From a virus (Duplodnaviria; Heunggongvirae; Uroviricota; Caudoviricetes): a DNA stretch of 10,733 nt. The notes beneath the pieces were generated by a model. The model was not told the DNA's origin and did not search any database. It saw only the letters and a list, made by a program, of their open reading frames with translations. Position 1 is the first letter of the stretch; the number at the start of each line of letters is the position of its first letter. Positions 921 through 9,498 of this stretch are shown here, piece by piece. The DNA is taken from positions 1-10,733 of the IMG/VR virus record IMGVR_UViG_2740892112_000004; one strand, given 5' to 3'. The position numbers and the translations under genes are program-made.

Positions 921-1115
921 GTCCTTCCTGGAATTATGGCCCGTTACGGGGCGGCGACCTCGCGGTTTTTATCTGTTTATGAAAATTTTTCTGGAAAAAG
1001 CATGTCGGTACTTCTCGAACATAACTATTTGTTTTTAAATAGATACACAATAAAAAGAAACGACACGGTAATCATCTAAAATGGCGATTTATGACGCTTT
1101 CATGTCGTTTCTCAG
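921..1115 (+). other. Lambda-type cos site, copy A: cosQ-like flank, cosN (GGGCGGCGACCT at 949-960), and a cosB with R3/I1/R2/R1-like layout
   Basis: ccgttacgGGGCGGCGACCTcgcggtttttatctgtttatgaaaatttttctgg matches my recollection of the lambda cohesive-end region. R-site-like motifs: catgtcggtacttctc (1001-1016) and catgtcgtttctc (1101-1113) direct, agaaacgacacg (1055-1066) inverted, with an AT-rich IHF-like stretch between. Confidence 0.8.
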
Positions 1116-1139: not shown

Positions 1140-1682
1140 TTACTCGCCTTTCTTCTGTAGCAACTTTTCCGGTACGTTTCCGGTTGTTTCTTTCAAGTAA
1201 TCAGCCAGTATCTGTGGGAGGTTGTCGGCAACTCTGGCACTGGCATTACAGGCTTTAACCACTTCCCTTTTAAGCCTATCCAGCATGGCGGGGGTAATCT
1301 GTGGGAAGCTCCTTTGCATAGTAAGCGGGAGGCTGTCCATGATTGATGAAATCTGACTCGCCAGCTTTGAAAGCGCGTACAGGCAAAACTCAGTATCAAT
1401 CACGTCACCGCGATCGCGCTCGTTTTTAAGTTCCTGCGCCTCCGCCTGTGCTGTCAGTAATCTGATCCTGACTCGTAAGAGTTCATCATCATCAATATCG
1501 CCTTTGTCGTTTGTAAGCTGGCTAATTGCATTGTTAACCCTATTGTCTATCACGCTGGCAACATCGTAAAACGCCTCACGGCCTTTACGTTCAACGGGAG
1601 TCACTCCCCACTTGTCGAACGCTGTCGCACTTACACGGCAGCTTTTCGCCATGTTTTTTTTGTTCATCAGGTGCGATTTCAT
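1140..1682 (-). CDS. Terminase small subunit, lambda Nu1-like (175-180 aa; start could be 1682 or the Met at 1667)
   Basis: Full-length resemblance to lambda Nu1 as I recall it. N-terminal NKK..A......V.....W............G.E..YD.A.VI and central/C-terminal LTAQAEAQELKNERD ... TEFCLYALSKLASQISSIMDSLPLTMQRSFP. Similar length (Nu1 is 181 aa). No clear SD at either candidate start. Confidence 0.8.
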   Translation of the reverse strand: MKSHLMNKKNMAKSCRVSATAFDKWGVTPVERKGREAFYDVASVIDNRVNNAISQLTNDKGDIDDDELLRVRIRLLTAQAEAQELKNERDRGDVIDTEFCLYALSKLASQISSIMDSLPLTMQRSFPQITPAMLDRLKREVVKACNASARVADNLPQILADYLKETTGNVPEKLLQKKGE

Positions 1683-1789: not shown

Positions 1790-1850
1790 CTCATAAATAG
1801 CGAAAAACCGCGAGGTCGCCGCCCCGTAACGGGTCCATATGCCGGAAAGG
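1790..1850 (-). other. Lambda-type cos site, copy B (inverted relative to copy A): cosQ-like flank plus cosN (minus-strand GGGCGGCGACCT = plus 1813-1824), no recognisable R sites
   Basis: Minus strand reads tatgggtcctttccggcatatggacccgttacgGGGCGGCGACCTcgcggtttttcgctatttatga. About 85% identical to copy A over roughly 70 bp. Sequence beyond that, toward terS, diverges and lacks GTCGTTTC-type motifs. Confidence 0.75.
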
Positions 1851-1886: not shown

Positions 1887-2300
1887 TCAGATGGTTTTCA
1901 GTATGCGATCGATGTCGCCGTCATCGCCCTGGTTTCTGCCATCGTATGCCATGCCAGCTGATACGGCTTGCGGGCTGTGCATGTCCATAAAGTTTTCAAA
2001 GGCTGCAGTAAGTTCCGGCGCAACCTTCGGACGTTCCTGCTCTATGGTCATGCTAAGGATGCTTTTAGCCGTACCAACATCGATACAAGGCACGTTTGCC
2101 ATTGCACGTAACAGCGGCTGATAGTCGCCAGATTCATCAAGCGCCATAATCGCATCAGCGCGCGGCTTGTCCTGCTCTTCCAGTTTGTTTAGTTGATATA
2201 CGGCCTCATAGGTTGATAAACCTCTGTCAGCCATTGCCCGCGCTTCGGCTTTAAATTTACTCGCCAGCGGTAGCGTCATGATGCTTTCATTCGTTGCCAT
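1887..2300 (-). CDS. Hypothetical protein, 137 aa (possibly head or packaging accessory by position)
   Basis: ORF with AGGGGGAA SD 4-5 nt upstream of ATG at 2300; last gene of the capsid operon. No family recognised. Confidence 0.5.
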   Translation of the reverse strand: MATNESIMTLPLASKFKAEARAMADRGLSTYEAVYQLNKLEEQDKPRADAIMALDESGDYQPLLRAMANVPCIDVGTAKSILSMTIEQERPKVAPELTAAFENFMDMHSPQAVSAGMAYDGRNQGDDGDIDRILKTI

Positions 2301-2312
2301 CGTTCCCCCTGC

Positions 2313-2648
2313 TTATCGGGCCAGCGGCTGAACGGATACGCCAGAACCCGCAAAGGCGGCGCATTTTTTCGCATCGGTGTCGACGCTCTCAGGCCAGTTA
2401 ACGGCGGCAATATTGAATATCCCCGTCTTGTAACACTGTGCTGATTTCTGCTTTGACGTGTCCACAGGGTACGAGGTCAGATAAACAGCCTTGCCAGATT
2501 CCTTACCATCCCACGGCTTAAACTCGCCATTGTCCGCCAGCATCAGCGGGGTAAATTCCTGAATAACGCCAGCATCAGCGGCAAAATGTACCAGCGTCGT
2601 GGCGACCTGCTGACTGCCTGCAAATAACTCAATGTATGGAGTGTCCAT
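2313..2648 (-). CDS. Head decoration protein, lambda gpD-like (111 aa)
   Basis: Motifs matching my recollection of lambda gpD: TPLMLAD, WDG, CYKTGIF, WPESVDTDAKKCAAFAGSGVSV (lambda: [38 protein letters not shown]). Similar length. GGGGGA SD. Confidence 0.75.
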   Translation of the reverse strand: MDTPYIELFAGSQQVATTLVHFAADAGVIQEFTPLMLADNGEFKPWDGKESGKAVYLTSYPVDTSKQKSAQCYKTGIFNIAAVNWPESVDTDAKKCAAFAGSGVSVQPLAR

Positions 2649-2659
2649 AGAATCCCCCG

Positions 2660-3715
2660 TTAACCAATTTTGACGGTAACAAATTTACGAATATCTGCCG
2701 GAACCGGCTGCGGTGCGCTGTGCGTCTGCACGTACTCAATCGCCGGATCGCCGTCCCCAATCCAGTTTTTCGGGTAAAACATGTTTTGCGTTGCGCCCGT
2801 TCTTACTGCGTCCTGATCCATAATCGCACCATAGGCCACCAGCCCTTTATTGTTGGTGTTGCCCAGAACCAGCAAATCAGGCTCAAGGAAATATTTTTCT
2901 GTGCCGTCGCTGTCAGTGTATTTGCCGGAATAGACGATAAGGGCAATATCGCCCAGATAGCCTTTAAAGCTCACCACTTCGCCCAGGTTTTTACAGGCCA
3001 GTTCGGCGGCGGACTCTGAACCACGGGAAAGATCGTACAGCTCACGGAATTTTTTAAAGCTGCGTAACGTGCGCCATACCTCAGCGCCCATAATCATGAC
3101 GTTTGCGGGGCAACCAGCCTGATCAGCATAAAGCTCGATGTCATAGATTGGGTCGTGCATGTCTTTATCCTGCTCGGACCATTTTTTACCCTTGGCCTGC
3201 TCTATGATGCAGTTTTCCGGTATTTTCCAGTCGATTTCATAGCGTTCTATGCCTTCGCCCTCAATGATGTTTTTTCCGGTCGTTATCGCATTCACCGCCA
3301 GCCATTCCACGCGCGCTTTAATGGCGTTTACCTGGCGGCGCATGTTGCCAGTAATCAGGCGCATACGGCGGTAGGTAGGGTCGTTAAGCTGTGCCGGATC
3401 TTCTCCAGCCATGCGCATGATGGTTTTCGTTGGATCGATTTCGTGCTTTGGCTTCATGTAGCCAGGTTTAATTGTGCTGGTTTCGTACCCTTTATCGCGC
3501 TGTACCTGGCTGCCAACCATAGGCGAACAAAACGCCGACATGGTGACTTCTTCAATGTCCAGGGTATCCAGCATGATGTTTTGCGTGCTGAATGTCGCCA
3601 CGTTCGGGAAAAACAGCGTAGTAAACAGAGGGTTGAATTTAAAATCCGCAATATCCCCGCGATTCAGGTACATGAAAAGCTGGTTAGTGTTAAGTGCCGT
3701 TGCTTTGCCTGTCAT
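2660..3715 (-). CDS. Major capsid protein, lambda gpE-like (351 aa)
   Basis: Collinear similarity to lambda gpE as I recall it: FKFNPLF..LFF, PGYMKPKHEIDP, DPTYRRMRLI, VSFKGYLGDIALIVYSGKY, LVLGNT, YPKNW..GDPA, SAP. GGGGGTGA SD. Start overlaps the upstream stop (TAATG). Confidence 0.8.
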   Translation of the reverse strand: MTGKATALNTNQLFMYLNRGDIADFKFNPLFTTLFFPNVATFSTQNIMLDTLDIEEVTMSAFCSPMVGSQVQRDKGYETSTIKPGYMKPKHEIDPTKTIMRMAGEDPAQLNDPTYRRMRLITGNMRRQVNAIKARVEWLAVNAITTGKNIIEGEGIERYEIDWKIPENCIIEQAKGKKWSEQDKDMHDPIYDIELYADQAGCPANVMIMGAEVWRTLRSFKKFRELYDLSRGSESAAELACKNLGEVVSFKGYLGDIALIVYSGKYTDSDGTEKYFLEPDLLVLGNTNNKGLVAYGAIMDQDAVRTGATQNMFYPKNWIGDGDPAIEYVQTHSAPQPVPADIRKFVTVKIG

Positions 3716-3921
3716 TATTCACCCCCGTGAACCTGATTCATACCCAGCGCCGCGCGTAAATAGGCGCGTACCTGCCAGCCTGTTGACGGCTCAACCATCG
3801 CCAGCGGATCAAGTCCTGCCGCAATGCCTGCTTTTACGTTCTGCTGGTGGCGTTCCTTGAGCGCCTTCACGATGTCGGGGCTGATGTACACCGAAACACC
3901 GCCTTTTTTCTCTTCAGCCAT
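3715..3921 (-). CDS. Hypothetical protein, 68 aa, first gene of the capsid operon
   Basis: ORF with AGAGGAA SD; stop overlaps the capsid gene start, suggesting translational coupling. No family recognised. Confidence 0.5.
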   Translation of the reverse strand: MAEEKKGGVSVYISPDIVKALKERHQQNVKAGIAAGLDPLAMVEPSTGWQVRAYLRAALGMNQVHGGE

Positions 3922-3944
3922 AGTAAGAAATTCCTCTTTGACTT

Positions 3945-3980
3945 AAAAAATCATAACTGGATGTTCATCCAGTTATGATT
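3945..3980 (-). terminator. 32-bp palindrome (15-bp perfect arms, 2-bp spacer, 3949-3980) followed on the minus strand by a U-run; terminator/attenuator or operator
   Basis: aatcataactggatg tt catccagttatgatt read directly; the minus-strand hairpin is followed by about 6 T. Confidence 0.45.
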
Positions 3981-4086
3981 ATAATCATGATTGCATTTTG
4001 TGCAATGATATTGAGTTGCGTTGCAAATTATGAAATGATTATCCCGATCATGTGTGTCAGTGCACCAAAAAACCTCATATGCAAAA

Positions 4087-4125
4087 GCCCGATAAGATGC
4101 CTCCTGTACTTATCGGGCTTTTTTT
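4087..4125 (+). terminator. Intrinsic terminator (stronger on the plus strand)
   Basis: GCCCGATAAG, 12-nt loop, CTTATCGGGC, then T7 at 4119-4125. Confidence 0.5.
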
Positions 4126-4131
4126 GGGTAC

Positions 4132-4153
4132 AAAAAAGCCGGATTACTCCGGC
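4132..4153 (-). terminator. Intrinsic terminator immediately after the perC-like gene
   Basis: Minus strand: GCCGGA-GTAA-TCCGGC followed by T6, starting 7 nt after the stop at 4160-4162. Confidence 0.6.
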
Positions 4154-4159
4154 TGTTGA

Positions 4160-4432
4160 TTAGCTGTCTGGGTAATTACGCCATATTTCATCGCTTACAC
4201 CATCTATACCCATTTCAGCATAAGTGCGATCTACTGCCTTTCTCAGGTCTCCGAAGTTATCCGGCGGCTCCGGTGGCTTCTGTGCCTTCCTGGAACATTC
4301 CAGCCGTCGCATCGTAACCTGATGCCGTTCCTTGTCTGTCTCCACCAGCAGCATGACTTCACCCCATCGCGCCGATGCCCTCCGGTAAAAGCCTTTTGCC
4401 TCGAGTTCCTCCGCTATGCGGTCATGTACCAT
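4160..4432 (-). CDS. PerC-family transcriptional regulator-like protein (90 aa; start at internal Met 4432 of the 4160-4552 ORF)
   Basis: MVHDRIAEELEAKGFYRRASARWGEVM fits the PerC-family N-terminal pattern as I recall it. GGGGGTGA SD 4 nt upstream of the 4432 ATG, which lies directly after the ssb stop; the longer ORF would overlap ssb by 110 nt. Confidence 0.5.
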   Translation of the reverse strand: MVHDRIAEELEAKGFYRRASARWGEVMLLVETDKERHQVTMRRLECSRKAQKPPEPPDNFGDLRKAVDRTYAEMGIDGVSDEIWRNYPDS

Positions 4433-4442
4433 CGTCACCCCC

Positions 4443-4853
4443 TCAGAACGGAATATCATCACCGTAGGGGTCATCGTCTCCCGCTGGTGGCTGATTACCC
4501 TGTGTGCCTGTGGTTTTGCGTCTGTTCCCGCCAGGACGTGCCGCACGGGCACTGATTACGCTGTCTGCAATAACCTGATAACCCTGCCGCGTTTCCCCGT
4601 TCTGTCCGGTCCACTGGCTGACCTGCATCGTGCCGGATACGCTGGCAACGTCGCCTTTTTGATGTTTAGCCAGGAAGTCGGCCTGCTTACCAAATGCGAT
4701 GACCGATAGCCATAACGTAGCCTGCCCATCCTGCGCCTGACTACATGGCAACGATACCGCCATACGTGCCAGCGTCATTGGTGTGCCCTTGCTGGTCTGT
4801 TTTACCTGCGGGTCGTCCACCAGCCGCCCGTAAGCTGCTATCTGTGCTGTCAT
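4443..4853 (-). CDS. ssb: Single-stranded DNA-binding protein (136 aa)
   Basis: OB-fold SSB pattern with the hallmark acidic C-terminal tip DDDPYGDDIPF. GGAGAGGTGG SD. ATGA start/stop overlap with the upstream gene. Confidence 0.85.
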   Translation of the reverse strand: MTAQIAAYGRLVDDPQVKQTSKGTPMTLARMAVSLPCSQAQDGQATLWLSVIAFGKQADFLAKHQKGDVASVSGTMQVSQWTGQNGETRQGYQVIADSVISARAARPGGNRRKTTGTQGNQPPAGDDDPYGDDIPF

Positions 4854-9149: not shown

Positions 9150-9482
9150 TATTGCCCCCCCTTTCGTTTCTTAAAGAGTCATCAGGTGTCTTATTGTGTC
9201 GTATTGTTCCCGCTAGAGTGATGAATGGCAAATATTGAGGATGTATGATTTACAGAAAATGAAACAGTAAGAATAAAATCTTTTAAATTCATGTTAATAC
9301 AAAGGCATAAAATATTGTTTCATGCCTTTTTTCTCGCTCTTTAAAGAGTGATTCGCTAGTGTATAAAAAACCAGTGACACATTAAAAATCAGCCACTTAT
9401 AAATCTGTATGCTTTTTCGCCTCTTGTTCGTGGTTGTTCCACATTGTTGCTCATTGTTGCACGTTGTATCTGTTCGCATATA

Positions 9483-9498
9483 CAGTATGCGCATACTG
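9483..9498. repeat. 16-bp perfect palindrome CAGTATGCGCATACTG between int and alpA
   Basis: Read directly; 18 bp downstream of the int stop codon. Confidence 0.5.

Follow-up and report, generated by a model that had tools for sequence, protein, structure and literature searches.

A putative LexA operator at the predicted start site of the packaging operon in EcCICFT073-type phage-inducible chromosomal islands

[quoted passage not shown] In EcCICFT073, induction by helper phages is AlpA-dependent and the Rpp protein redirects packaging; rpp is the characterised gene, the capsid-like c1499 and decoration-like c1500 having no known phenotype (PMC6092414, PMC6739421). The switch-on of the rpp operon is not described in the literature searched, where induction is explained only via helper-induced AlpA, and the EcCICFT073 papers searched (PMC6092414, PMC6739421) describe neither a promoter nor terminators nor a LexA site for the packaging operon. 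The packaging module of Staphylococcus aureus pathogenicity islands (SaPIs), known as operon I, is LexA-controlled according to Ubeda et al. (2007), as that work is cited in PMC5052747 and PMC3152322, and in the PICI literature searched LexA appears only within citations of SaPI work. Here, we analyse a DNA stretch of 10,733 nucleotides from the IMG/VR virus record IMGVR_UViG_2740892112_000004 (the window, meaning the whole stretch), and in particular the 238-bp gap between the stop of a perC-like gene (4160) and the first downstream ATG (3921). Judged by sequence identity, the window is an EcCICFT073-type PICI of E. coli, since E. coli MS 21-1, in which the copy of the element adjoins tRNA-Pro, matches segment 3700-4600 at 99.9% identity, and the intergenic region studied here shares 96% identity with its counterpart in CFT073. 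The region is carried by 620 E. coli genomes. On balance, the evidence tips toward an arrangement in which the packaging operon, insulated by two terminators, has a promoter of its own and is gated by LexA, and hence by the SOS response.

The argument centres on the 20-mer AACTGGATGAACATCCAGTT, which fits CTG-N10-CAG and stands near TACTG(TA)5CAGTA, the LexA consensus (PMC6590174). Its heterology index (HI) is 5.2, which is mid-range compared to the leave-one-out values of 27 known operators (1.0-11.6). The window has no better site, and in 2000 shuffled windows no site reached this score. The half-sites, CTGGAT and ATCCAG, are identical to those of the ruvAB operator CGCTGGATATCTATCCAGCA, which was verified in MG1655. 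The box lies 3 bp downstream of the TATAAT that forms the -10 element of a predicted sigma-70 promoter, for which the start is predicted at ~3971 (+/-2), ~7 nt past the -10. Genes under tight LexA control typically have their operator just past the -10, where it spans the start (PMC8072944).

Conservation of this arrangement was examined in 44 homologous upstream regions from three genera. The set comprises the E. coli genomes L001-L006 and 37 metagenome contigs recruited with the capsid protein, as well as distant loci reached through homologues of the 68-aa protein encoded first in the operon, including Salmonella Glostrup (L165) and Pluralibacter gergoviae (L167); L005, L006 and L158 represent a divergent sister lineage of E. 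coli, and L007 is a capsid-forming PICI (cf-PICI). All 24 unique box-bearing variants share an unchanged -10 hexamer, TATAAT (38 of the 44 loci could be anchored); in the divergent group it reads TAAAAT, and the TTGC of the -35 is invariant among the relatives. The box is present in about 40 of the 44 loci, including Salmonella (HI 7.7) and Pluralibacter (HI 5.2, shifted by 13 nt), is absent in one sister lineage, and is the only strong box on the packaging side in ~262 kb of related loci. Natural variants of the box span HI values of 4.0-7.9. Among these, a CCAG-to-ACAG substitution in the core (L151 and L152) gives an HI of 4.0, a change towards the LexA consensus that breaks the hairpin formed by the site, and in O157, where a G-to-A substitution at the centre comes together with a flank change, the HI hardly differs (5.5).

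The box is embedded in the third of three hairpins, which the original prediction had placed within 240 bp before the first gene of the capsid operon. All three lie inside the 238-bp gap and were recovered at the predicted positions by a terminator scan, a repeat search and a fold, far beyond chance: a 256-nt region folds at -79.2 kcal/mol compared to -50.1 +/- 4.2 kcal/mol for shuffled sequences (z = -6.9, 0 of 200 as good), and is thus ~29 kcal/mol more stable. The third hairpin is a perfect palindrome, whose arms (3949-3963 and 3966-3980, 15 nt each) are 100% complementary and separated by 2 nt; by a back-of-envelope estimate, ~1e-4 such 15-bp-arm palindromes are expected per 10.7 kb. Its hairpin reaches -17.3 kcal/mol. 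The T run that comes next (TTTTTT, 3950-3945) has its first two bases within the stem; a stem plus U tract is present, and the scan lists the site as terminator-like. The palindrome could accordingly be a third serial terminator, as originally proposed, in front of an operon that lacks an effective promoter and needs an antiterminator or PerC to pass three hairpins, and two points speak in favour of it: every box-bearing variant from E. coli still folds, at -10 to -19 kcal/mol, and the T run is conserved.

We nevertheless consider such a third terminator quite improbable. The left arm begins in the invariant TATAAT, with the conserved TTG at 16 bp, and the first three bases of the palindrome are the end of that hexamer. 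The operon's own transcript, if it begins at ~3971, would contain only the last 5-6 nt of the left arm, which can form a stem of at most 5 bp that does not adjoin the U run. Because the overlap with the -10 of the conserved promoter would leave the full hairpin out of the operon's transcripts, the palindrome is probably not mainly a terminator. Nor is the hairpin conserved as a structure: the outer arms are not conserved and are gone in Pluralibacter and, except for their ends, in Salmonella, the sister lineage and cf-PICIs keep the promoter without the hairpin, with no stable structure at this position in the divergent E. coli lineage and L007 (-3 to -6 kcal/mol), and the rough terminator score is below threshold. 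The downstream module, moreover, is free to recombine with unrelated modules upstream of it, in keeping with a self-contained promoter.

The activators that such a terminator would call for, both of which had been suggested at the outset, also fail to find support. For helper-encoded late antitermination, lambda boxA (CGCTCTTA) does not occur in the window, and the one boxB-like match in the window is at chance level and lies inside int; with no boxA, a chance-level boxB and an operon that has its own predicted promoter, a lambda-type N mechanism with a nut site upstream of the packaging operon is not supported. The adjacent PerC-like protein was likewise discarded as a cis-coupled activator on the basis of co-occurrence, since 19 of 37 islands with promoter and box have no PerC within 1 kb upstream and 18 have one.

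Within the palindrome, pairs 9-14 (CTGGAT/ATCCAG with an N4 centre) are essentially invariant across 38 loci, in which ten distinct 32-mers carry the motif beside the -10. Mismatches are frequent at pairs 6-8, where the type seen most often (13 loci) has a G.A mismatch, and the palindrome is perfect in 9 of the 38 loci. In Salmonella the core is at the same place with different inner flanks, and in Pluralibacter the core lies 13 nt further downstream. The reading that suits the palindrome best is that of an operator at the start of the packaging-operon promoter, possibly doubling as a fail-safe terminator; of the signals considered originally, a regulator binding the palindrome fits the evidence best.

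The identity of the protein is a separate matter, because the core would be expected to be invariant and to lie on the start site whichever protein binds it. The operator could belong to a dimeric non-LexA regulator of the island or the helper, which recognises CTGGAT-N4-ATCCAG and perhaps the AATCA/TGATT arms, the likeness to LexA being incidental. The palindrome exceeds the LexA box, with AATC/GATT ends that are kept even in Salmonella, the outer arms show a compensatory change in one lineage, and an ATCAT/ATGAT motif recurs across the promoter region. No candidate protein was found, however: PerC is missing from half of the box-bearing islands, and the 68-aa protein neither covaries with the box nor matches a DNA-binding fold. 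Furthermore, at every critical position the core agrees with the LexA consensus, none of the 2000 shuffled windows reached this level, and one natural core variant shifts clearly towards that consensus. Taking these points together, we regard a non-LexA regulator as unlikely. The 68-aa gene was also considered as a ribbon-helix-helix autoregulator, without support: its AlphaFold model (predicted local distance difference test, pLDDT, 74) consists of a beta-hairpin and two helices and gave no significant fold match and no DNA-binding fold against the PDB, and its alleles do not follow the box, that of Salmonella being of the box-less type.

The core could also act as RNA in the operon's own transcript, either as a 5' stem-loop (UGGAUG/CAUCCA) affecting mRNA stability or translation or, in Pluralibacter, as a weak leader attenuator. 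A transcript from the predicted start would open with a 5-bp stem-loop in most variants, and the Pluralibacter leader contains the whole box hairpin and a U run. This stem alone is worth only about -3 kcal/mol, the L151/L152 variant destroys it and yet persists, nothing equivalent exists in the sister lineage, and the core is simply invariant, with no covariation within it. A role of the core at the RNA level therefore appears very improbable.

Several observations weigh against LexA control. The HI matrix is made of 27 E. coli operators from the literature, eight of which were checked (8/8 present upstream of their genes in MG1655). The promoter itself has a -35 that matches the consensus at three of six positions, for which reason TTGCAC-16-TATAAT was not listed by the scan, and its start at ~3971, like LexA binding and SOS inducibility at the box, is a prediction from sequence. 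Searches of the literature returned no description of LexA control of this satellite family and no electrophoretic mobility shift, footprint, chromatin immunoprecipitation or RecA/LexA-induction data for the box. In Pluralibacter the box is 13 nt further from the -10. L005, L006, L158 and the cf-PICI L007 share the promoter and its upstream repeats and have no box, and because of this sister lineage and L007, LexA control would not be essential to the family. The palindrome extends beyond the LexA box by 6 bp on each side, and the compensatory change in the outer arms of one lineage (AATCAC...GTGATT) is not explained by LexA alone and hints at an additional constraint, such as a hairpin that stops read-through or a larger protein. 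In addition, plaque assays show that lambda is blocked by EcCICFT073 with no SOS induction (PMC6092414, PMC6739421), which implies that rpp is expressed without LexA cleavage, whether by leakiness, an increase in copy number, read-through or another activator.

Further LexA-like boxes were seen in the int-alpA intergenic region of three islands, at 9468-9487 and 9357-9376 in the window, 13570-13589 in L001 and 12197-12216 in L004. The window box TACTGTATATGCGAACAGAT has an HI of 9.1, with 0.034 sites that good expected per shuffled window, and the MS 21-1 box TACTGGTTTTCTGTACAGCT has an HI of 7.0. According to published reporters, alpA is not SOS-inducible. Just past the LexA-like box downstream of int, the minus strand of the window carries four tandem 10-bp units at 9420-9460 (GCAACAATGA, GCAACAATGT, GGAACAACCA and CGAACAAGAG), which may be binding sites for a recombinase or a regulator.

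Two conserved 19-bp direct repeats with the consensus ATCATTkCAyAAwwTGCAA, 30 bp apart, stand at and upstream of the -35. Exact matches to ATCATTNCANAANNTGCAA are limited to two in the window. Both repeats and their 30-bp spacing are kept in every relative examined, including the divergent group, L007, Salmonella and Pluralibacter, and they are also kept in islands without perC and in cf-PICIs whose packaging genes are unrelated. This conservation suggests that a further regulator may act at the promoter. The repeats were considered as AlpA sites shared with the alpA promoter, an idea that is left without support because the window has no further copy of the motif. The scan did list a promoter, TTCATA-18-TATCAT (4034-4005), but its -10 is not conserved (TTTCAT and TTGCAT variants), and it was rejected as the main promoter.

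As a side observation, the -10 region GATTATAATC (3976-3985) is itself palindromic, and the plus strand reads TATAAT at 3980-3985 with a weak -35 inside the LexA-like box. A divergent plus-strand RNA of ~130 nt (3992-4125) that ends at the second terminator is conceivable, because this terminator is the stronger on the plus strand. Conservation offers no evidence for such an RNA, since 4041-4082 exists as two unrelated alleles.

The other two hairpins, termed T1 and H2, are by all sequence features ordinary, well-conserved terminators at a module junction. The perC-like gene, the last gene of the upstream replication/accessory block, ends with TAA at 4162-4160 on the minus strand, and T1 starts 6 nt past it. 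Terminator scan, repeat search and fold agree on its stem-loop AGCCGGA-GTAA-TCCGGCT (4154-4137; 7 bp, five of them G-C, with a GTAA loop), and a GC-rich stem-loop with a U tract is thus found after the stop, on the transcribed strand. Terminator d-scores, computed from folding energy and tail scores with the formula of d'Aubenton-Carafa (1990) and usable only as a rough ranking, give T1 +20 on the minus strand and a strongly negative value on the plus strand. In every relative among the 44 loci, T1 lies 5-35 nt past the stop of the last upstream-module gene, which can be any of six (three perC alleles, ssb, a 74-aa cassette gene and one other), and its stem variants still pair (GCCGGA/TCCGGC, GCCGGGA/TCCCGGC, GCCGGG/CCCGG and CCGGG/CCCGG).

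H2 reads GCCCGATAAG (4118-4109), a 12-nt loop and CTTATCGGGC (4096-4087) on the minus strand, and together with the flanking A7 upstream and T4 downstream its arms are perfect over 14 nt (4083-4096 and 4109-4122). Its layout is of the bidirectional type, with A7-stem-T4 on the minus strand and stem-T7 on the plus strand, and it looks bidirectional on account of rough d-scores of +22 (plus strand) and -11 (minus strand). Within the main E. coli group, the loop varies freely around a stem that does not change. In L005/L006, L158, Salmonella L165 and Pluralibacter L167, H2 is replaced by different stems with the same layout of A run, stem and T run, which makes four to five unrelated stem sequences across E. 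coli sublineages, Salmonella and Pluralibacter; L158 shows a paired one-base insertion, with an extra base in both arms.

BLAST matches from many genomes cover 3700-4124 alone or 4132-4600 alone, placing a mosaic junction at ~4125-4132, and H2 travels with the promoter module. Because the matches break between T1 and H2, T1 belongs to the upstream module and H2 to the downstream module, the gap between them being the recombination point. The earlier proposal that the capsid and replication blocks are separate transcription units with real terminators between them is supported. The bases between T1 and H2 (~4125-4132) are also an insertion hot spot (L002 3420-3800, L003 3425-3600 and L007 2650-2830). 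In O157 strains a cassette with a 74-aa gene sits at this place, flanked by two copies of T1, and ATCC 25922-type islands and a cf-PICI share the same ~150-bp non-coding insert with a small hairpin; an Rfam search of the L003 intergenic region containing this insert returned no match.

Every gene of the window is on the minus strand (Table 1). Up to the gap, the order is integrase, AlpA-type regulator, Icd-like protein, DUF4222 protein, RepA-type helicase, SSB and the PerC-like protein; past it follow the 68-aa protein, a lambda-E-like capsid protein, a gpD-like protein, a 137-aa protein and a Nu1-like small terminase/Rpp. The latter block, originally named "capsid operon", corresponds to the c1499-c1503 region of EcCICFT073, in which the capsid-like genes have no known phenotype and rpp is the characterised gene. 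The T run and ribosome-binding site (RBS) of the leader are conserved in all variants, including those without the palindrome. The 68-aa gene is mosaic, the O157 allele being 68% identical and the adjacent capsid gene 98%.

Table 1. Positions of the predicted features of the intergenic region and its flanking genes in the window
Feature	Position	Strand	Remarks
perC-like gene	4160..4432	-	Pfam PF06069 PerC, E = 1.6e-44; 90 aa as annotated in MS 21-1 (L001)
T1, intrinsic terminator	4132..4154	-	stem-loop 4137-4154, then T6 (4137-4132)
H2, second terminator, bidirectional-looking	4083..4125		A7, 10-bp GC-rich stem, 12-nt loop, T4 (minus); T7 on plus
Distal 19-bp direct repeat ATCATTTCATAATTTGCAA	4021..4039	-	~-50 to -68 from predicted start
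Proximal 19-bp direct repeat ATCATTGCACAAAATGCAA	3991..4009	-	overlaps -35; inverted repeat ATCATTGCA-N5-TGCAATCAT inside
Predicted sigma-70 promoter of capsid/packaging operon	3978..4005	-	-35 TTGCAC (4000-4005), 16-bp spacer, -10 TATAAT (3978-3983)
32-bp perfect palindrome	3949..3980		15-bp arms, 2-nt centre; left arm begins inside -10 hexamer
LexA-operator-like 20-mer (CTG-N10-CAG)	3955..3974		~-3 to +17 of predicted start
5' leader	3922..3948	-	T run 3945-3948 (continuing TT 3949-3950); RBS AAAGAGGAA 3931-3939; ATG 3921
68-aa first gene	3715..3921	-	no family annotation
Lambda-E-like capsid protein	2660-3715	-	second in operon
gpD-like protein	2313-2648	-	decoration-like
137-aa protein	1887-2300	-	ahead of rpp
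Nu1-like Rpp/TerS (small terminase)	1140-1682	-	last listed in operon

Other functions of the studied region were considered and rejected. A cos site at the palindrome was one of them, the cosN 12-mers being elsewhere: the exact lambda cohesive end GGGCGGCGACCT occurs twice, at 949-960 (plus) and 1813-1824 (minus). Each copy is central to one arm (919-989 and 1784-1854) of a 71-nt inverted repeat that is 82% complementary, and the two cos-like sites thus stand in opposite orientation in the intergenic regions that flank the Nu1-like rpp/terS gene. A replication origin was another, the published ori being located directly 3' of pri-rep (PMC6092414). Searches for further relatives were negative within their scope: the phage collection contained no match to window positions 3700-4600, the capsid protein found no confirmed relative among one-genome-per-species contigs, and the pattern CATTGCNNAAAATGCAAT gave only chance-level matches in the same contigs, none encoding the neighbouring genes. 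An Rfam search of the window gave a best match of 26 bits in the region, compared to a threshold of 60 bits.

A plausible mechanism can be outlined from these features. The long leftward unit (alpA ... rep, ssb, perC) would end at T1 just past the perC stop, and H2, as the terminator of the downstream module, would back T1 and shield the next promoter from transcription on either side. The packaging operon (68-aa, capsid-like, decoration-like, 137-aa and rpp) would start at its own sigma-70 promoter behind the two 19-bp repeats, where LexA on CTGGAT-N4-ATCCAG at the start site could hold it down in undamaged cells. RecA-stimulated cleavage of LexA, which is also the inducing signal for helper prophages, would then release the operon. 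Any polymerase that got past T1 and H2 could still be stopped by the full palindrome and U run, as a last terminator. A broader and more tentative generalisation, which we hold to be possible rather than probable, is that Rpp-type PICIs of E. coli and related bacteria place their packaging operon under LexA in convergence with SaPI operon I, that the palindrome serves both as a DNA operator and as an RNA fail-safe terminator for AlpA-driven read-through, and that, with the int-alpA boxes, the island senses damage itself besides its helper.

If LexA control is true, exposure to DNA-damaging antibiotics would set the stage for packaging interference and island transfer with no need for AlpA, as it does in SaPIs, and a LexA operator on the rpp-operon promoter offers a concrete and cheaply testable hypothesis. 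If LexA does not bind, ordinary inter-operon terminators and an operator for another protein would remain. For engineering, T1 and H2 mark boundaries that could be used as insulators, and accessory cassettes would find a natural place in the gap that separates them.

The locus can be placed among known systems at several levels. Tandem or bidirectional terminators are found at module boundaries of phages and mobile elements, and T1 and H2 are likewise GC-rich stem-loops with U tracts; they would be ordinary examples that sit exactly at an inter-module recombination junction. EcCICFT073, the prototype Gram-negative PICI, belongs to the same family as the window, with the intergenic identity of 96% given above and a shared order of perC, the 68-aa gene, capsid-like c1499, decoration-like c1500, ..., and rpp. 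With the SOS operators of ruvAB and cho (CACTGGATAGATAACCAGCA) the box shares CTG-N10-CAG and an HI in the functional range, and its predicted position at the promoter start would match theirs; it differs from them in that its centre, GAAC, is not A/T-rich, in being embedded in a 32-bp palindrome with a T run, and in being predicted only. The packaging operon resembles SaPI operon I in gene order and promoter, lying downstream of the replication module with its own predicted promoter. As far as the citing accounts describe it, operon I likewise belongs to a satellite of the PICI class and is a packaging and interference operon past the replication module; a LexA site in its own promoter couples its expression to the SOS signal by which helper prophages are induced too. 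The two differ in host clade, in genes (cpmAB, ptiA/B/M and terS in the SaPI, compared to capsid-like, gpD-like and rpp here) and in LexA motif, the Gram-positive LexA box being CGAAC-N4-GTTCG. LexA control is experimentally shown in the SaPI and predicted here, where a sister lineage and cf-PICIs are without the box. If the prediction holds, this would be a LexA-gated packaging operon like SaPI operon I in a model Gram-negative PICI.

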